From a virus, in the UHGV virus genome UHGV-0126656: a DNA stretch of 10,402 nt, one strand, 5' to 3'. The notes under the pieces were generated by a model that saw only the letters and a program-made list of their open reading frames with translations, ran no database searches and was not told the origin of the DNA. Below, in pieces: positions 1 to 10,402 of the stretch. Each line of letters opens with the position of its first letter. Positions within the stretch are counted from its first letter, which is position 1. Made by a program: the position numbers and the translations under genes.

Positions 1-148
1 TTTTGGCGGATCGGTTGTGCCGGTGACGGTGAAATCACTCGCATTTCCTTCCTGAATACGGTAGTTATCAGGCGTGGCGCGGTGTGGCGGGGCGGTGGCG
101 GGAATATATCCGGCTGTGTATCCGGTGAAAGTGAATGGCCTGTATAGC

Positions 149-1013: not shown

Positions 1014-1250
1014 TTATTGGTTATCGCTGTCAGAAAGTAGTCCAATTGATTTAAAGAATTTCATCACATCCTGATAGCGATACAAGAAACCTCCGTGCTT
1101 CAGTGCTGGCATTCCCTCAACCGGATCCGGAAAAGGAGTTCCAGCATCTTTCCACTTCCTGACCAGTTTGAAAAATGAGGACTTACTAAGCCCGCCTAAC
1201 ATTTTTTGCACTTGCTCACGATTAATAAGTATTGTTGCTGTCTTATCCAT
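1014..1250 (-). CDS. Small DNA-binding protein, AlpA/Vis (excisionase-like) family candidate (78 aa)
   Basis: Translation has the short HTH layout of phage AlpA/Vis regulators (LGGLSKSSFFKLVRK ... FPDPVEG ... LYRYQDVMKFF). Tightly coupled to the upstream 62-aa gene (19 nt gap). Assignment is by motif resemblance only. Confidence 0.55.
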   Translation of the reverse strand: MDKTATILINREQVQKMLGGLSKSSFFKLVRKWKDAGTPFPDPVEGMPALKHGGFLYRYQDVMKFFKSIGLLSDSDNQ

Positions 1251-2193: not shown

Positions 2194-4398
2194 TTAACGC
2201 CGCCGTGGTTGTAACATGCCTCCAGGTCTTTGCGACTCGCGCTGCATCAGGCGCATTGCTGTGTTTTCTATAGTCTGTTGCAACGCTTTTGAGTCGTCTT
2301 CAGTCCAGCCGTTTGTCGCCTGGATGTTGTTTGTTACGTTCAGTGTGATGCCGCCACCACTGCCAACCAGATCGCGGCCCGGTGTAACTCGTCCACCCTC
2401 GCCGGGGATCATGTACTGTTTCCCGCCAGTAGAGGTAAATAACTCAGGGACACCGTGCTCACCAACCCTGTAAAGATTGCCACCGTTAACCGCGCCGCCG
2501 TTGTAGCGACCACCGCCAAACAAGCCAGTAATGCCAGCCATCAAGGCGCTGATAGCTGACATTGCGACCATCGGGGCCGTCCCCATTGTCGCGGTAGCTG
2601 TCGCCGCTGCTGCCGGGGCCATTGATGATGCGATTGATGCGCCTGTTGCCGCTGCTGTTGCCGCTTGTCCGCTCATTGCGCTGGCGCTGGCTGCCTCGCT
2701 TAAGATCATTTGTTTGACGTATTCAGCGCCCATCTCAGCGATACTTCCCACCACTTTTCCGAGAATGGTAGTCCCGATATTGGCGAAAGCGGTTTCCAGG
2801 TTCTGCGTACCATTAAGCAGGCCGACAACGGCATTTGTAGCGCCACCACTCAGGCCATCAGCCATGTCACCAATCAGGCCATTAATCCCACCTTGCGCCC
2901 GGAATTGTTCCCACTGCGAGGCAAGCAATTCTTCTGCGTGCTGTTGTTTAAGCGCGTTTAGCGTTTCCTCGTTAATCATCTGTTTGTTGAATAGCTCATC
3001 AGCCTGTTGCATTTCAAGGGCATGGCGTTGTTTGAGCGCATCAACGGGATTAAATTGCTCATTAAGCTGTTTTGCTTTTTCTTCCAGTTCGATTTGATGC
3101 TCACGCGCGGCGTTTGTTTCGTAAATCAGGTGCGCAAGGTTTTTCATCTCACTAACCTGTTTTGCCGTTGCGTTAGCGCCCATTTCCTGAACGGCGTCCC
3201 ACATTTCAGCCTCTTTGCTACCCTCAGCAAAGCCCTGGTTAAGTCGTTCCAGTTCTGCGCGTTTCCGTTTCAGCGCTTCTTCTGCCGGATCTTTCTGCGC
3301 GCGTTTCGGTTTATTGCCACCTCCACCGCCATTGTCTTTCAGCTTAATATCAGTGGTGGCCTGCTGTGTCGGTAGCGTTGACACAAAACCCGTAGATTGA
3401 TTGTCTGGCGCTGCGCCTAAGAAGTCGGTTTGTTTGGCTTGAGCGCGGAATAAATCAAGGCCCGGCACAAACGGCTCAAAGGCTGCGGCAAGTGTCCATA
3501 ACTTATCAGCCAATGACGCAGAATCAGATTTCAGCGTTTTAAACCAGCCGGATAGCTCGCGGCAATAATCAGCCAGCGTTTTAATACCGCGACCGACCAG
3601 TTCAGTAACATGCAGCGTCTGGTCGATGGTTTCCAGTAACAGGCTAAAATTTGTTGATAGCTCTGTCATTGCCTGTTCCGTGGTTGTCGGCAGCTTGTTA
3701 AATTCTTTTTCGATTTCGCCTGATCCTTTCAGGATTGCATTTACTACATCCTCAGCCGTCAGTTTGCCATCCAACATGCGGCGACGTAGCTCACCCATTG
3801 AGATCCCCATCTGACTTGCTACGCGCCGCCATAGCTCCGGCATACCCTCCAGGATGCTGTTAAATTCCTCAGCACGGACAATACCGCCGTTAATAGATTG
3901 CCCTAACTGTCGCAAGGCGTTTGCGGCTTCTTCGGATGAACTACCACCAATACGCCCGATCTGCTGTAGTGTCTCTGTCAACTGTAAGATCTGGCCCCCG
4001 GTAGCGTTTGCATCAGACAAAGCTGAAGTAAGGCTTTCCCATAACTTAGTAGTATCCTCAATCTTCATGCCAGTTCGCTTGCTGATCTCAAGAATGCCGC
4101 TAAAATTAGCCTTAGCTTCAACCAGACTACCGGATAGCCGGGATACACGGGCGCGTAGTAGTTTTACGTTGTCCGCGATTTCAATAAAGCGTTTAGCCGC
4201 CATCATTAGCAGGCCAACGTTAACCGCCGCCGCCAGTTTGCTGATTGTCGTATTCAGTTTGTTGATTGAGTTATCAGCGCGCTTTGCGCCGCGTTCAATG
4301 CGATCGAATGCGTCGTCAGCTTGTTTCCCTGCGGTTAATAGCTTCCCTGTGCGCGCATCAACCTCATAATAAATTCTACCTACGTTTGTGTTACTCAT
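2194..4398 (-). CDS. Phage tail tape-measure-like protein (734 aa)
   Basis: Long, mostly helical protein with an N-terminal region typical of tape-measure domains (GMPELWRRVASQMGISMGELRRRMLDGKLTAEDVVNAI), a Gly run (GGGGGNKPKR), a coiled-coil middle, a C-terminal Ala/Gly/Thr/Ser-rich hydrophobic stretch and a Gly-rich tail (LYRVGEHGVPELFTSTGGKQYMIPGEGG). Classification is by resemblance; no search was run. Confidence 0.75.
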   Translation of the reverse strand: MSNTNVGRIYYEVDARTGKLLTAGKQADDAFDRIERGAKRADNSINKLNTTISKLAAAVNVGLLMMAAKRFIEIADNVKLLRARVSRLSGSLVEAKANFSGILEISKRTGMKIEDTTKLWESLTSALSDANATGGQILQLTETLQQIGRIGGSSSEEAANALRQLGQSINGGIVRAEEFNSILEGMPELWRRVASQMGISMGELRRRMLDGKLTAEDVVNAILKGSGEIEKEFNKLPTTTEQAMTELSTNFSLLLETIDQTLHVTELVGRGIKTLADYCRELSGWFKTLKSDSASLADKLWTLAAAFEPFVPGLDLFRAQAKQTDFLGAAPDNQSTGFVSTLPTQQATTDIKLKDNGGGGGNKPKRAQKDPAEEALKRKRAELERLNQGFAEGSKEAEMWDAVQEMGANATAKQVSEMKNLAHLIYETNAAREHQIELEEKAKQLNEQFNPVDALKQRHALEMQQADELFNKQMINEETLNALKQQHAEELLASQWEQFRAQGGINGLIGDMADGLSGGATNAVVGLLNGTQNLETAFANIGTTILGKVVGSIAEMGAEYVKQMILSEAASASAMSGQAATAAATGASIASSMAPAAAATATATMGTAPMVAMSAISALMAGITGLFGGGRYNGGAVNGGNLYRVGEHGVPELFTSTGGKQYMIPGEGGRVTPGRDLVGSGGGITLNVTNNIQATNGWTEDDSKALQQTIENTAMRLMQRESQRPGGMLQPRRR

Positions 4399-5382: not shown

Positions 5383-5925
5383 TCAGTACCGAATCCCTAT
5401 CGCATTGAATACGCGTTTCCGTTGCTCAGCTTCAGGATCGGCGGCCATTTCTGGTTCTGGCTCCGGCATAGACGGGGCGGCATCAAAATGCTCAATTTCA
5501 CGACCGAAATACGAGTTCAGGACAATACCTGCCGAACTATCCACTCCATCAAAATAGCGACGCTGTTCCTCGGTGAGACAGCTACCCAGACGTTCCTCAA
5601 CCTGCGCCATAAACTCAGCATCCGGTGAGAAGTACTCATCCGGAGTCGGAGCACCGCTCTGTTTGTGCATCTCCATTTTCTCTGCGTTCGTTTTCAGCCC
5701 GGCAATGCGTTTCTCCAGTCCGGCGGCTTTAATAGCGTCAGCAACGATTTGTGGGATCTGCGGTTTAATTGTTTCGATAACTTCATTGCTGATTAATTTA
5801 AACTGGGCCATACGGATCGCTTTAATCTGCTTATTTAACAGTGCGCGTTCCCCTTCGTTGGCGGTTTTATCACGCTGTGCTACCAGTTCATCGCCTTTGT
5901 TTGTCAGTACATCAAATGCGTCCAT
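5383..5925 (-). CDS. Hypothetical acidic protein (180 aa)
   Basis: ATG at 5925 with a GGAGGAG Shine-Dalgarno and 8 nt spacer; starts 17 nt after the stop of the upstream gene. Acidic, Pro/Glu-rich C-terminal segment (MPEPEPEMAADPEAEQ). A tail assembly chaperone or scaffold-like role is speculation only. Confidence 0.6.
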   Translation of the reverse strand: MDAFDVLTNKGDELVAQRDKTANEGERALLNKQIKAIRMAQFKLISNEVIETIKPQIPQIVADAIKAAGLEKRIAGLKTNAEKMEMHKQSGAPTPDEYFSPDAEFMAQVEERLGSCLTEEQRRYFDGVDSSAGIVLNSYFGREIEHFDAAPSMPEPEPEMAADPEAEQRKRVFNAIGIRY

Positions 5926-6345: not shown

Positions 6346-6537
6346 TCATTGGTGGCGAGCGCCTTTGTTTTTATAGAATTCCAAAATCTCAGATCGGATA
6401 AACTTAATTCGTGCACCGACCGGAGTAACCGGAACGGGCCAACCTTTAATCTTGTTAATCCAGCGGAATATAGTGCGTCGGGTAACGCCGAATAAAGCGG
6501 CTACCTCGTTCACCGTCATTAATTCGCTATCATTCAT
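6346..6537 (-). CDS. alpA: AlpA-family prophage regulatory protein / excisionase-like HTH (63 aa)
   Basis: Translation MTVNEVAALFGVTRRTIFRWI... is a typical AlpA/Xis-type helix-turn-helix. GAGGTGA Shine-Dalgarno 4 nt before the ATG. Sits where AlpA-like regulators are usually found in P4-integrase islands. Confidence 0.8.
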   Translation of the reverse strand: MNDSELMTVNEVAALFGVTRRTIFRWINKIKGWPVPVTPVGARIKFIRSEILEFYKNKGARHQ

Positions 6538-6556
6538 GTTCTCACCTCAAAAAGTA

Positions 6557-6590
6557 GCGGTGAGGAAAAATATGGGAAAACCCTCACCGC
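6557..6590 (-). promoter_or_regulatory. alpA leader stem-loop (9-bp stem) with U-run, overlapping anti-SD/SD logic
   Basis: Minus strand reads GCGGUGAGG-16 nt loop-CCUCACCGC-UACUUUUU, then the SD GAGGUGAG and AUG. The CCUCACC arm can pair with either the upstream arm or the alpA Shine-Dalgarno. Confidence 0.35.
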
Positions 6591-6729
6591 GCCCTGAATG
6601 AAATTAAAGACCAACATTACTGTTGATACTTAATATTATATTCCTCATGTCCCTGTTTCACATCTTTTACCATATAGGGAAAGGGGATATTCTGTAATGT
6701 TTACAAAACTTTTAATTAGCAAAAAATAA

Positions 6730-6758
6730 TTGCGCATCTCACGTAATACAGGGATAAT
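6730..6758 (+). promoter_or_regulatory. Candidate sigma70 promoter (TTGCGC-17 nt-GATAAT)
   Basis: -35-like TTGCGC (6730..6735) and -10 GATAAT (6753..6758) with 17 nt spacing, pointing toward the plus-strand terminator at 6825..6851. Confidence 0.3.
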
Positions 6759-6764
6759 ATTACT

Positions 6765-6851
6765 CAAGGGCTGGTAACCCTTACTCAAAATGTGATCTAT
6801 AACTACAACGATTGATTTCACTTCCCCGCTCTCTCCGGCGGGATTTTTTTT
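6765..6851 (+). ncRNA. Candidate small RNA (~85 nt), divergent from alpA
   Basis: Bounded by the candidate promoter and a strong intrinsic terminator. No ORF (ATG TGA only). Has a 5-prime stem-loop (AAGGG-CUGGUAA-CCCUU) and an AU-rich linker before the terminator. Confidence 0.3.
6825..6851 (+). terminator. Rho-independent terminator (plus strand)
   Basis: GC hairpin (CCCGC ... GCGGG, 6825..6842) followed by eight T (6844..6851). No plus-strand CDS lies upstream. Confidence 0.6.
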
Positions 6852-7971
6852 GCCTGCAATCACCACATCAAAACTAATTAAAATTAGATGCCGTTTAAAC
6901 GCAATATAACGCATTCTGACGGCCTTAATTTTTGGCAATGCATTTGCTCAGGTGTGATTAGATTGATTCGTCTGGCGTGGAATGGTGCGGCGGTAATATC
7001 AGATCTCAGCGTTCTGTGTGGCGATTCCTCAGCTCTGAGGAGTGGGCGTCCGTCATTCAGTCTCAGCACCTTGCTCAAACGAGATCGGCTGCGATGGCGT
7101 TGTAGGCCGCATTCTGTCGTTTAATGAGACGTGCCTGATTGGACAATCTGAAATCTGGTTGGTGAGACTATTCAGGCGAGACTGTTCAGCGGGGAAAGCG
7201 GCGCATGTCGATGAATCCATTCCTGGATTAATCGGCGTTGTTCCGGTGTCTGGTGAAAATTTAATGAAATCGCATCAATTATAATGCGTCTAAATCGCTC
7301 TGTGGCGACGTGAAGTTTTCAGGTAAGCAAGTGCGGTTATATGTGTTCATCGCGTTACAGGCACCATTCCGTTCGAATTTGGCACGGTCAGGATGGTTTG
7401 CGGTGGTCGGCGGCGGGGATAAACTTGCTTGAGTGGTCACCTCAGCCTGCTGTGCGTCGTGTGATGGTACTGTCTGCACCTGGCTATACGCTGCTTTGCT
7501 GCTGTTTCCTGTCTGGTCTGTATACGCGATAAAACCCATCGGCTTTACAGTGAGTGAGTTTTTTGCGCTTTGCTTTCCATTCGGTTTGCTTACTGCTGCT
7601 GTGTGTCTGTGCGGTAGCTCAGAAAGCTGTTGACGATAACCATCACTGCTAAGCCCGTCTTTTAAGCTGGCAATTGCTCGAAGCCTTCCGAAGGCCCACC
7701 AATAAGAAATCACCCTTTGAGATATACCGCGCTCCCCATGAACGAATGCCATGATGGTTTGTTGGTCTGCTGTTCAGGTTGTACGTGAGTGAATGGGCGT
7801 TTCCAGCTTGCTGGAAATGATTGCGCTAATCAGCATGGTTAATGCTCGCAACCAGCCGACCTATCAGGCGGCGAAATAATTCTTCTGTTTAACTCTAGGC
7901 GACTCTCTATGACCGACCGGGAGGCTAAAAAACTCCCGTCGCCTAGAATTCTTAATAGTAGAATTCTTACT

Positions 7972-8082
7972 CGGCAACTTTTGACCCACCCTAACGGCAA
8001 CTTTTGACCCACCAATAACGGCAACTTTTGACCCACCTGAAGGCATAAATTGACCCACCCTAACGGCAACTTTTTACCCACC
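7972..8082. repeat. Iteron array (about 5 direct repeats, 23-24 bp period), putative replication origin
   Basis: AACGGCAACTTTTGACCCACC repeats beginning 7972, 7993, 8017 and 8062, with a degenerate copy at 8041..8059. Flanked at 7944..7969 by two TAGAATTCTTA repeats and at 7918..7938 by a hairpin. Lies just downstream of the Rep-like gene and its terminator. Confidence 0.7.
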
Positions 8083-8102
8083 TGAATTCATGGAATTAAG
8101 GC

Positions 8103-8129
8103 AAAGAAAAGGCGGGAACATTGCCCGCC
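8103..8129 (-). terminator. Rho-independent terminator after the Rep-like gene
   Basis: Minus strand: hairpin GGCGGG/CCCGCC (plus 8111..8129) followed by TTTTCTTT (plus 8103..8110), immediately after the stop at 8138. Confidence 0.5.
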
Positions 8130-8137
8130 TGATTCCG

Positions 8138-8665
8138 TTATTTCATGTTGTACGGCTTGAATAATAACTGGTATTCGTTGCACTCCCTTTCTGCCGATCC
8201 TGGTATATAGCCTTCAGTACGCTCAACAAGTTTGAAGTGGTTGACCAGACGATCGAGGCATTTTTTAACCGTGTTTTTTGATAGCCTGGCTCGTTTGTCG
8301 ATTGTTCCCCTACCAACCCTGCACCATCCCAACGGTGAGTTTTTGCCAGTACCAGCGAAGTAACAAAGAGCACGTAGCACAGCCTCGTCGTTGACTGTAT
8401 GTTCTTTCTCCCATCTTTCGTACAGTTTGCGGGGCAATACTTCATCAAGTCGGTTCAATGTGTCCAGGTAGCGCAGGTTGCCACGCCAGGCTTGCTCCTG
8501 CTGTTTTGCCTCGTGATGATCTGTTTCCTCGTGATTATCTGGCGTGTGTTCTTCGTGTTTAGTCTCTTCGTTTTTGGGTGCTTTATTCCGTAACTCGTTA
8601 ATTTTATTTAAAAATTGACGAACATCATTGTTTGTTTCTTGTTCTACTGCTAGCATATCAGACAT
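8138..8665 (-). CDS. Putative iteron-binding replication initiator, winged-helix (phage O N-terminal-like), 175 aa
   Basis: The ORF track starts at 8779, but the ATG at 8663..8665 (MSDMLAVEQ...) has an AAGGAG Shine-Dalgarno 8 nt upstream and is preferred. C-terminal segment (AVLRALCYFAGTGKNSPLGWCRVGRGTIDKRARLSKNTVKKCLDRLVNHF) resembles winged-HTH replication initiator domains; acidic His/Glu-rich N-terminal region. Function inferred from fold-like motif plus the adjacent iterons. Confidence 0.5.
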   Translation of the reverse strand: MSDMLAVEQETNNDVRQFLNKINELRNKAPKNEETKHEEHTPDNHEETDHHEAKQQEQAWRGNLRYLDTLNRLDEVLPRKLYERWEKEHTVNDEAVLRALCYFAGTGKNSPLGWCRVGRGTIDKRARLSKNTVKKCLDRLVNHFKLVERTEGYIPGSAERECNEYQLLFKPYNMK

Positions 8666-8839
8666 GAGAAATTCTCCTTTAGCTTGTTTCTCATACCGCC
8701 CCCGGAATGTTGCAGCATGCCGGGGGCTTTTATTTGTGTTGATCCTATTTTCGAACTCTGGATCTTTCGTTGCAAACATGGATTTAAGTTCTTGATATTG
8801 AATAATTTATTCCACTTAATTGGAATAATGGAATAATTA

Positions 8840-8868
8840 GCGAAAAAGAAAAGCCGGACGAATCCGGC
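8840..8868 (-). terminator. Rho-independent terminator downstream of the integrase gene
   Basis: Minus strand: hairpin GCCGGA-UUCG-UCCGGC (plus 8853..8868) followed by TTTTCTTTTT (plus 8840..8852), about 100 nt past the int stop. Confidence 0.5.
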
Positions 8869-8969
8869 AAATTGAATACAGGTTTCTTATCAGGTGATAG
8901 TTAAACCACACAAAACAAATGCTTATACAAAATGCAAAATTGCGCTTTGCAAAAAAGCCGCTTAATTAT

Positions 8970-10178
8970 TCATTCCGGTTCTAGAGGATTGCCGTTACCT
9001 GCCAATATTGAATCAATAGCGTCGGCGTAATCCTGCATCATTGCTCGCCGTTGCTTCAGGTAGGCCGCCTGGTTATAAATCGCCCTGATTCCCTTTGGAA
9101 CATGGGCCAATTGGATTTCGACCCAATCAGGGTTATACCTGCCGGATTCGTTAAGCGCCGTGCTGAATGTTGTGCGCCAGCCGTGGCCTGTAACCGTCGA
9201 TTTGAATCCGATACGCTCCAGGGCTTTAAGGATGGCACTGGCTGAAAGTGGCTTATCCATGAATCGACCAGGGAACACAAAAGCACTGTATCCGCTGCGG
9301 GTAAACTGGTCCTGTAATAGCTCGACCGCCTGCCGGGATAGCGGGACCACATGCGGGCGGCGGGCCTTCATGACTTCAGCGGGTAGGGTGATGGTTGCCG
9401 ATTCCAGATCTACCCACTCCCAGCGCATTAAACGCAGTTCTGCGGTCCTTAGGGCGCTTAATATAAGCAAACGTATTGCCGTCTGAATCTGAACGCTCCC
9501 GGCTCTCTCAAGGGCTTTGTAGAAGGCCGGGATTTCACTAATTTGCAGCCATGCGTTATGACCTGGGCGTCTGGCTTTCAATGCCGTGTCCAGATCTGCA
9601 ACCGGATTTCTGCTAACCAGTTCGGTGATAACGGCAAATTTGAAGATCTCCCCGATACGCTGGCGTAATTTCCTGGCCTGTTCCGGTGCGGTGCGCTCTT
9701 TCTTCTGAAGCAATGCCAGTACGTCACGGGCGGTTATATCAACGATTGAACGTTTTCCCAGCACGGTGTAAACATCTTTCTCTAGTGCCGATCTGACCTG
9801 CTTTGTATAGCTCTCACTCCAACCGCTCACTCTGGTAGCAAACCAGTCTTCCGCTACCGTCTTAAAACTTGCCGCCATGTTGAGCGCATCAATGGCTTTC
9901 TCCTTGCGCGCTTCTTCCATTGGGTCAATTCCCTGGGCGATGAGTAAACGGCTCTCTGTGGCGCGTTTACGTGCTTCCTTCAAGGTAATCAGCGGATATA
10001 CCCCAATAGCCTGTAACCGCTCTTTCTTGTCTATCCAGTACCGGAATCGCCAGTATTTGCTGCCATTGGGATGCACCAGCAAGAACAGGCCAGGTGTCTG
10101 TGAATCGGTGAGTTTGTAGGGCTTGTCCTTCGGCTGGGCGGCCTCTATGCCCTTTGCTGTCAGTGGTGTCTTGCTCAA
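8970..10178 (-). CDS. int: Tyrosine recombinase, P4-type phage integrase (402 aa)
   Basis: N-terminal arm-binding signature (PYKLTDSQTPGLFLLVHPNGSKYWRFRYW) and C-terminal catalytic region (HGWRTTFSTALNESG ... VEIQLAHVPKGIRAIYNQAAYLKQRRAMMQDYAD) characteristic of P4-family integrases. Start codon is TTG at 10176..10178 with a GAGGT Shine-Dalgarno 8 nt upstream. Confidence 0.9.
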   Translation of the reverse strand: MSKTPLTAKGIEAAQPKDKPYKLTDSQTPGLFLLVHPNGSKYWRFRYWIDKKERLQAIGVYPLITLKEARKRATESRLLIAQGIDPMEEARKEKAIDALNMAASFKTVAEDWFATRVSGWSESYTKQVRSALEKDVYTVLGKRSIVDITARDVLALLQKKERTAPEQARKLRQRIGEIFKFAVITELVSRNPVADLDTALKARRPGHNAWLQISEIPAFYKALERAGSVQIQTAIRLLILSALRTAELRLMRWEWVDLESATITLPAEVMKARRPHVVPLSRQAVELLQDQFTRSGYSAFVFPGRFMDKPLSASAILKALERIGFKSTVTGHGWRTTFSTALNESGRYNPDWVEIQLAHVPKGIRAIYNQAAYLKQRRAMMQDYADAIDSILAGNGNPLEPE

Positions 10179-10366
10179 AACCGGATACCTCGATCTAACG
10201 ACTCGATAACCCCGCTCATGTATCCGGCGCGTTCGGTTGCGTTCGGCAGGATAAGTAACGGGCGTATTAAGGGGAACACCTTACAGCACAAGGGCTAACG
10301 ATGAAATAGAATTGTTCGAATGCTGGAAGAAATGTTACTCATCACTTCTTCCTGAGGGAACGACTT

Positions 10367-10402
10367 ATGAAACTAAAGACCACATTGTTCGGCAATGTAT
10401 AT
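10367..10402 (+). CDS. Partial CDS, 5-prime end only (MKLKTTLFGNVY...), unknown product
   Basis: ATG at 10367 preceded by a GAGGGAA Shine-Dalgarno with 6 nt spacer; ORF runs off the window. Divergent from int. Confidence 0.35.
   Translation, partial: MKLKTTLFGNVY

Follow-up and report, generated by a model that had tools for sequence, protein, structure and literature searches.

The CPZ-55-type island in the ethanolamine operon

The window, which is the whole stretch of DNA analysed in this work (10,402 nucleotides, UHGV virus genome UHGV-0126656), contains a single complete CPZ-55-type island in the Escherichia coli ethanolamine operon, between eutA and eutB. The island extends from position 56 to position 10347 of the window (10.3 kb), and all of its genes are on the minus strand. 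Its eutB-proximal part carries a tyrosine integrase gene, the small gene yffL with a terminator behind it, an array of direct repeats (iterons) and, between the iterons and the AlpA-side genes, about 750 bp of conserved non-coding DNA (Table 1). The best explanation of this arrangement, which we hold with moderate confidence, is that YffL and the iterons form an initiator-only replicon on a satellite-like island. The element itself is already known as CPZ-55; the functional reading appears to be new. Literature searches gave no account of what YffL or the repeats do, or of CPZ-55 acting as a satellite; extended to yffO, yffP, yffS and yffM and to satellites with tape-measure or terS/HNH genes, they likewise turned up nothing on the function of the module.

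The first 55 bases of the window are the 3' end of eutA, and the eutB start codon lies at 10367. An 8-bp direct repeat, the attachment (att) core, flanks the island on both sides. Chromosomal homology restarts at window position 10348 (empty-site genomes match from query position 169), and an insertion-free genome reads ...GCATTTCCTTCCTGAGGGAACGACTTATG at the empty site. Because the insertion point coincides with its stop codon, eutA remains intact. The island nevertheless splits eutA from eutB by 10.3 kb of opposite-strand genes and terminators, which should be polar on eutBCLKR.

The eutA/eutB site, with intZ and yffL adjoining eutB, assigns the island to the CPZ-55 family: CPZ-55 of E. coli K-12 (intZ, yffL to yffS; locus L002), annotated as a cryptic prophage, occupies the same insertion site. 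Positions 7635-10402 of the window (int, yffL, the iterons and about 340 bp more) are 90.6% identical to K-12, and the proteins YffL and IntZ are 98.6% and 91% identical, respectively. The two islands differ in their remaining cargo, which in K-12 consists of yffM-yffR including the small terminase YffO (6.8 kb in all), whereas the window island (10.3 kb) carries an AlpA-like gene, a tape-measure homologue and others. The yffL core was present in 273 of 5,426 complete E. coli genomes, the majority of them K-12 derivatives. A complete K-12-type CPZ-55 (int to yffS) was also found on a conjugative IncFIA/IncR plasmid of Klebsiella pneumoniae (L009; NZ_KY751926.1, 86570-93044), between ISEc23 and the mphA resistance region.

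Table 1. Features of the CPZ-55-type island, in window coordinates.
Feature	Position	Strand	Remarks
Left att core, 8-bp direct repeat CTTCCTGA	48-55	+	includes the eutA stop codon; identified against an empty-site genome
AlpA-like helix-turn-helix (HTH) protein, 63 aa	6346-6537	-	HTH_17/excisionase type (Pfam, PHROG)
Small open reading frame (ORF), 97 aa	6645-6938	-	89 aa in the annotation of a related genome; low-GC stretch
Conserved non-coding block 2	7221-7527	.	78-91% identity among chromosomal loci
ORF157, probably no gene	7279-7752	-	overlies the conserved non-coding blocks
Conserved non-coding block 1	7679-7971	.	includes inverted repeat 7891-7903/7938-7950; starts with the AT-rich stretch
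Short AT-rich stretch, 31 bp	7941-7971	.	71% A+T; two AGAATTCT palindromes; directly beside the last iteron
Iteron array, five 19-bp direct repeats	7972-8082	-	period 22-24 bp
Intrinsic terminator	8110-8130	-	directly 3' of yffL; 7-bp stem with 6 GC pairs, T run
yffL, proposed origin-binding initiator	8138-8668	-	176 aa; RefSeq-style ORF 8138-8779, 213 aa
30-bp palindrome GCCCCCGG ... CCGGGGGC	8698-8727	.	between the annotated (8779) and the likely (8668) yffL start
Terminator-like hairpin	8853-8868	-	3' of int
IntZ-type tyrosine integrase, 402 aa	8970-10178	-	P4-type architecture (Pfam, PHROG)
Right att core, 8-bp direct repeat CTTCCTGA	10348-10355	+	12 nt before the eutB ATG

Gene model, homology and fold of YffL

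The ATG at 8668 is preceded by the Shine-Dalgarno sequence AAGGAG and several homologues start there; therefore, the product of yffL is probably 176 aa long. The upstream extension of the longer ORF (8779-8668) is not conserved as protein. It contains the 30-bp palindrome, an inverted repeat (87% complementary) kept in L001 (a related island at the same site) and in K-12, which may be a candidate operator or attenuator. The N-terminal part of YffL is charged and helical, and the C-terminal part (residues about 96-213 of the 213-aa ORF) is a winged helix. In PHROG, the protein matched phrog_186 (DnaD-like loader, 3.3e-4) and phrog_270 (replication initiation, 9.7e-4).

Relatives of YffL were sought by two word-index searches and an exhaustive HMMER search among 1.84 billion protein representatives. 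Apart from E. coli-type sequences, these recovered a single distant homologue, P0014 (33% identity, E 9.4e-9), and a search of the GTDB species genomes gave E. coli matches only. The contig of P0014 also encodes a P4-type integrase and an HTH_17 protein. P0014 itself passes the Pfam model HTH_36 (26.5 bits vs. a cut-off of 25). In PHROG it has matches to nine families, the best being phrog_270 (2e-8); eight of the nine are named as replication initiator or DnaD-like helicase loader, and the ninth is an HTH DNA-binding family. Its C-terminal domain aligns to the N-terminal DNA-binding part of all nine. These profile matches suggest that the winged helix of YffL is homologous to that of phage replication initiators. 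Among the sequences related to YffL were fusion products (P0008 and P0009), in which the N-terminal part of YffL is joined to the C-terminal part of the 180-aa protein encoded at window positions 5383-5925 or to EutB; they indicate deletions or rearrangements within such islands.

An AlphaFold2 model of the C-terminal 118 aa gave a confident winged helix (predicted local distance difference test, pLDDT, 83.9; predicted template modelling score 0.81). The full-length model, built from an alignment of six sequences, was unusable (pLDDT 44). In BFVD, the winged-helix model had 30 matches at E<=1e-3 (best 4e-5), of which the named ones were mostly HTH-domain phage proteins; they included a replication protein of a Tenacibaculum phage and protein O of Min27, and a protein with a GpO N-terminal domain and one named 'replicon initiation' lay just above this threshold. 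HTH_36 and O-like phage proteins are thus among the BFVD fold matches. The fold alone cannot settle the function of YffL. A sequence-only reading of this DNA, made before the present analysis, had described a small winged-HTH Rep-like protein of about 175 aa; both size and domain agree with our results. It had also proposed homology and structure searches of that protein, which have now tied it to replication initiators; the named sequence-profile and viral-fold matches include no transcription factor family without a replication role, the outcome that would have told against that reading.

The ratio of non-synonymous to synonymous substitution rates (dN/dS) between yffL variants was 0.06-0.18 overall, about 0.05 in the winged helix and 0.4-0.7 in the charged N-terminal part. 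The low overall ratio extends to comparisons in which dS reaches saturation, so yffL is kept under strong purifying selection.

The iteron array and the conserved non-coding DNA

The five iteron copies are located at 8064-8082, 8041-8059 (degenerate), 8019-8037, 7995-8013 and 7972-7990, with spacings of 23, 24, 22 and 23 bp (Tandem Repeats Finder score 150). Three copies match GGTGGGTCAAAAGTTGCCG exactly and one with a single mismatch; this sequence occurs nowhere else in the window and gave no match in 200 shuffles, which bears out the iterons of the sequence-only reading. At each of five loci examined, the iterons lie about 55-70 bp past the yffL stop codon, in two to five copies, and at least two copies of the core GGTCAAAAGTTGCC are kept. 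There are five copies in the window, four perfect ones at the same place in K-12, three each in L001 and L004 and two, with changed first bases, in L005. The terminator between yffL and the array is unchanged in all four loci of alignment A3. The array thus has the repeat structure by which iteron origins are recognised, namely at least three direct repeats of 17-22 bp, about two helical turns apart and adjoining the initiator gene. The AT-rich stretch next to it is conserved across the five loci compared, apart from one or two substitutions, and may be a candidate unwinding or protein-binding site. The repeats were also considered as arm sites of the integrase. This was rejected, as they are 2.2 kb from the nearest end of the island and stay with yffL when the integrase differs.

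Beyond the array, conservation in both blocks greatly exceeds that of yffL at synonymous sites. Block 1 keeps 92-96% identity between loci that have diverged in yffL to a dS of 0.6-1.6, and a part of block 2 is 86% identical to positions 2323-2515 of a 9-kb circular plasmid record (CP057168.1, locus L008). ORF157 was rejected as a gene, since indels of 1-2 nt break its frame in L001, L004, L005 and L008; it has no family matches. Neither this non-coding nature of 7279-7752 nor the CPZ-55 family identity had been part of the sequence-only reading. The blocks had no Rfam match (no match anywhere reached the gathering score), RNAalifold found no covariation support in the non-coding region, and the stretch 7150-8140 had no match in 50,697 phage records. 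The conserved non-coding DNA may serve as an extension of the origin, for packaging or in regulation.

This conservation bears on the classical cryptic-prophage view, according to which the island is a decaying remnant of a temperate phage, YffL a truncated O-like initiator and the repeats a dead origin, so that the module would no longer have a function. Several observations agree with such decay: the annotation of CPZ-55, the presence of an isolated tape-measure homologue and of an Xis-like gene with ties to mEp021-group phages, the variable number of iterons with one degenerate copy, the broken ORFs that fill the neighbouring DNA, the deletion and fusion variants, and the fact that circular DNA was not seen in K-12. 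A remnant is nevertheless difficult to reconcile with the selection on yffL (dN/dS as above, at dS up to saturation) or with the identity of the DNA past the iterons at loci with so much synonymous divergence. Moreover, this compact gene order is found again beside different integrases, at different insertion sites and as a plasmid, and a C-terminal winged helix is unlike what truncation of an O-like protein would leave. We therefore consider decay an unlikely explanation of the module.

Chromosomal and plasmid-form relatives

All relatives that were examined have iterons 3' of the equivalent gene, and the succession of small DNA-binding gene, repeat array, non-coding DNA and alpA is retained even though the proteins and the repeats differ. 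L005 occupies a different chromosomal site and its integrase is only 31% identical; yffL and the repeats are at the far end of that island, which is a circular permutation of the order in the window and is what a circular intermediate predicts. Six E. coli plasmid records of 8.0-9.7 kb are also related (CP057168.1, CP057337.1, CP057350.1, CP058022.1 and two 8-kb records, one of them deposited as linear). The loci referred to here are L008 (CP057168.1), L010 (CP057337.1), L011 (NZ_CP062904.1) and L012 (CP058022.1). The three REHAB plasmid records examined are annotated as circular, and MOB-suite assigned no replicon type to any of four plasmid records typed. The plasmid gene order is a YffS-like gene, a small DNA-binding gene, a repeat array, 1-1.8 kb of gene-free DNA, an AlpA-like HTH gene, an HNH gene (present in two of four records examined), small genes, an Sf6-type small terminase and a YffP-like gene. 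A resolvase-type serine recombinase replaces the tyrosine integrase. No chromosomal copy of L008 was found in the 5,426 genomes.

The slot occupied by yffL in the window is filled by other small winged-helix proteins in L008 and L011, and by a 538-aa homologue of DUF5906 primase-helicases in L012 (phrog_1156, 4e-25), which is followed by three repeats of 11 bp. The slot repeats of L008 and L010 (3 x 26 bp) and of L011 (4.9 x 22 bp) are unlike the yffL iterons. Because syntenic relatives hold other winged-helix proteins or a primase-helicase in this position, each with its own repeats, we read it as a replication slot. No other recognisable replication gene was found among the proteins of the plasmid relatives that were scanned; with no typed replicon either, the slot and its repeats are, by elimination, the only candidate for the replicon of these plasmids. 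By synteny, yffL and its iterons would be the equivalent module of the integrated islands.

YffO of K-12 (L002 7112-7528) is homologous to small terminases, with a match above threshold to Pfam Sf6_terminase (2.6e-9), and homologous genes are present in L004, L005, L008, L010 and L012. Neither the annotations nor the scans of the island family showed capsid or lysis genes. These terminases raise another interpretation, in which the repeats would be a packaging (pac/cos-type) or partition site and YffL a DNA-binding adaptor, like a small terminase or a centromere-binding protein. Relatives that encode a small terminase and HNH must have packaging signals somewhere, the highly conserved non-coding DNA by the repeats could be a cos region, and TubR and other segregation proteins are among the fold matches of the YffL model in the PDB. 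We nevertheless regard this interpretation as very unlikely. YffL has no similarity to terminase or partition families in Pfam, PHROG and NCBIfam scans and a ParA/ParM-type partner is lacking; relatives with similar terminase genes have different repeats; and a cos region copied from a helper should match phage DNA, whereas the non-coding region was unmatched in the phage records searched.

A proposed initiator-only replicon

Scans of the main ORFs of the whole island against Pfam, PHROGs and NCBIfam detected no primase or helicase, as the sequence-only reading had stated. In the mechanism that we propose, IntZ, probably aided by the AlpA-like HTH protein, would excise the island and integrate it at the 8-bp core. 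The C-terminal winged helix of YffL would bind the five iterons just past the terminator of its own gene, and this complex, together with the AT-rich stretch and the conserved non-coding DNA, would be the origin of the excised circle. Since genes for a helicase, a loader and a primase are missing from the island, YffL would have to pass the opened origin to the replication proteins of the host or a helper phage, and its charged N-terminal part may be what does this. Borrowing of this kind would make replication conditional, in the manner of a phage satellite. The anatomy of the island, its insertion site, the conservation and selection and the existence of plasmid-form relatives are shown by the data, whereas we infer that YffL binds the iterons, that the region acts as an origin, how a helicase is recruited and that a helper is needed.

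A number of results weigh against this proposal. YffL has no match above Pfam thresholds, and no relatives were found in IMG/VR viral contigs. In the PDB, its winged-helix model matched generic winged-helix proteins, with Crp/Fnr and MarR regulators ranked above plasmid RepA. Its winged helix is C-terminal, whereas the domain is N-terminal in phage initiators, so the domain order is not that of HTH_36/O-like proteins, and neither a second domain nor a known helicase-recruiting domain was recognised. Apart from the AT-rich stretch, which is only about 30 bp long, the iteron and non-coding region lacks the unwinding element and host-factor sites of an iteron origin (no DnaA box, integration host factor (IHF) consensus or GATC cluster). 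Homology between YffL and the slot protein of L008 was not detected (hhalign probability 3%), and the window's own island has no terminase gene. Finally, circular CPZ-55 DNA was not seen when the mobilome of stressed K-12 was sequenced (bioRxiv 10.1101/2024.07.17.603846). This last result fits conditional, helper-dependent replication and equally fits inactivity.

Some of these points would be expected if YffL were a transcription regulator and the repeats operators for a transcript running through the non-coding region towards alpA, with no role in replication. The fold is generic and its best PDB matches are regulators, DnaA boxes were not found, the 30-bp palindrome and the two short palindromes of the AT-rich stretch flank the module, and a regulator upstream of alpA would be sensible among co-oriented genes. 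A regulator would not, however, account for the named sequence-profile and viral-fold matches, which are replication initiators and not regulator families. No sigma-70-like promoter was found within or past the array, five phased direct repeats behind a terminator would be unusual as an operator, one relative (L012) has a primase-helicase in the same slot, and the plasmid relatives have no other replicon. We consider regulation without replication improbable, and an initiator-only replicon remains the reading that we favour.

Integrase, AlpA-like protein and other genes of the island

The integrase has the P4-type architecture announced by the sequence-only reading, with an N-terminal Arm-DNA-bind_3 domain (Pfam, 2e-24), a central Phage_int_M domain (1.8e-28) and a catalytic Phage_integrase domain (3e-22) carrying R..HxxR..Y. 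The motifs LRTAEL, HGWR, LAHV and AIYN were all found. The protein matched phrog_1 at 1.5e-68, and its score against NCBIfam PRK09692 (244.7 bits) was under the cut-off of 434 bits. Excision of CPZ-55 has been measured in K-12, at low frequency (PMC3105296), from which it follows that the integrase is functional.

The 63-aa protein matched Pfam HTH_17 (PF12728, 4.4e-9) and phrog_66 ('excisionase and transcriptional regulator', 2.9e-9); against TIGR01764 ('excise') it scored 26.4 bits, just below the cut-off of 28.8 bits. It is predicted to act like an HTH protein of the AlpA/excisionase type. The name AlpA given to it by the sequence-only reading holds in this wider sense and not in the strict one, because the Phage_AlpA model (PF05930) gave no match. 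The neighbouring small ORF is 100% identical to a hypothetical protein of L001 and has no family matches. The same reading had noted the absence of a repressor/cro pair. Indeed, there is no divergent pair, all genes being co-oriented; relatives of the YffS-like protein (194-973) are annotated as XRE regulators, so the island may still encode a regulator.

The sole tail gene of the island (window 2194-4398, minus strand) encodes an intact 734-aa tail tape-measure homologue (TMP_3, 1e-53), whose versions in related islands have 726-729 aa. Its best phage relatives are mEp013 (50.6% aa identity), Salmonella phage 29485 and the mEp021 group. A 78-aa HTH protein (phrog_4745) is encoded at 1014-1250 (minus strand), in DNA that is 80-83% identical to the integrase region of mEp013 and mEp010; this gene may be Xis-like and common to the candidate helper group. 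The tape-measure and Xis-like genes tie the island to temperate phages of the mEp021 group, which are suggested as candidate helpers from gene similarity. A terminator-like hairpin with shared flanks occurs three times (130-170, 973-995 and 1883-1922), once after each of three minus-strand gene groups. Two of the copies are 88% identical across 26 nt, and the three may mark module boundaries or recombination points. PADLOC detected no defence system in the window. In L001, an AIPR-family (abortive infection) gene lies beside the tape-measure homologue (L001 4487-6193), which suggests a hotspot for cargo or defence genes there.

Comparison with known satellites and replicons

The gene content was compared with the published criteria for phage-inducible chromosomal islands (PICI) and P4-like satellites (PMC10085698). 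The integrase and AlpA-type regulator of a PICI are present. The window has no primase/replicase gene (pri-rep), which among the relatives only L012 has, and no gene for packaging or capsid hijack (terS, ppi, rpp, capsid morphogenesis). Out of the seven P4-like core genes, only int and the AlpA-like HTH gene were matched, with no match for psu, delta, sid, epsilon and alpha. By these criteria, the island does not qualify as a P4-like element or as a PICI of type A or B (PMC10085698).

There is nonetheless a likeness to PICI such as EcCICFT073 and the Staphylococcus aureus pathogenicity islands (SaPIs) in the size of about 10 kb, the integrase at one end, the AlpA-type regulator, the lack of a capsid/tail/lysis set, a replication gene with an iteron origin directly after it and, in CPZ-55 relatives, a small terminase. 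In SaPIs, likewise, the replication gene is followed by an iteron origin. The replication proteins of PICI differ in being of primase/helicase types, none of which is in the island, and capsid-morphogenesis, ppi and rpp genes were not found in it. With P4-like satellites the island shares a P4-type integrase, an AlpA-like HTH protein, a size of about 10 kb, an enterobacterial host and, in some family members, a plasmid form; it differs from them in that alpha (primase-helicase) and other recognisable P4-specific genes were not found in the scans. No P2-type cos site was recognised by eye.

The winged-helix domain of YffL appears related to the O-like/HTH_36 initiators, of which lambda O is the model, although in YffL it is C-terminal and unaccompanied by a P-binding C-terminal domain. 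The layout of ori-lambda resembles that of the island, where four or five 19-bp repeats with a period of about 23 bp lie by an AT-rich stretch and an inverted repeat. The candidate origin of the island differs in lying outside the gene, and no P/DnaC-type loader is encoded. Iteron plasmids (Rep_3/RepA_N) are similar in their direct 19-bp repeats about two helical turns apart, a candidate winged-helix Rep, small-plasmid relatives and the RepA structures among the fold matches of YffL. They differ in that YffL matches neither Rep_3 nor RepA_N, has a single winged helix and is not accompanied by DnaA boxes. The phage-inducible chromosomal minimalist islands (PICMI) of Vibrionaceae are very small, with int, alpA and large non-coding stretches containing broken ORFs, and their core includes a primase needed for replication (PMC10803314). 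The CPZ-55 island is likewise small, with int, an alpA-like gene and non-coding DNA with broken ORFs, and, like PICMI, has no capsid-remodelling genes, but it has only a winged-helix protein in place of the primase and belongs to another host family and insertion site.

A satellite lifestyle of the CPZ-55 family is plausible from these comparisons. The satellite-like look comes from the size of 8-10 kb, the absence of capsid and lysis genes, the AlpA-type regulator and the small terminase and HNH genes of relatives. The sequence-only reading, which had likened the gene set to phage satellites more than to a full prophage, is supported as regards a backbone for integration and replication; the reliance on host or helper functions recruited to the iterons, which it also put forward, is part of the mechanism proposed above. 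More tentatively, and with some doubt, CPZ-55 and its relatives may be an unrecognised family of E. coli satellites with integrated (tyrosine integrase) and plasmid (resolvase) lifestyles and an exchangeable replication slot. In the YffL branch, this slot would be reduced to an origin-binding protein of 176 aa, with helicase, loader and primase all borrowed from a helper or the host, the ultra-conserved non-coding element of about 300 bp beside the iterons would be a shared cis site for replication or packaging, and K-12 would carry a remnant.

Implications

E. coli K-12 still has some uncharacterised proteins, YffL among them, and up to now CPZ-55 has been treated as inert prophage debris. 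Functionally, the reading proposed here amounts to a rep-ori module reduced to a DNA-binding initiator. If it is correct, it would give a function to a K-12 orphan gene and define a satellite-like family with integrated and plasmid forms, one that current satellite finders would miss because it has no primase-helicase. The module would be a very small model of the dependence of a mobile element on foreign helicase loading, and the plasmid-form relatives would account for a class of small E. coli plasmids without a typed replicon.

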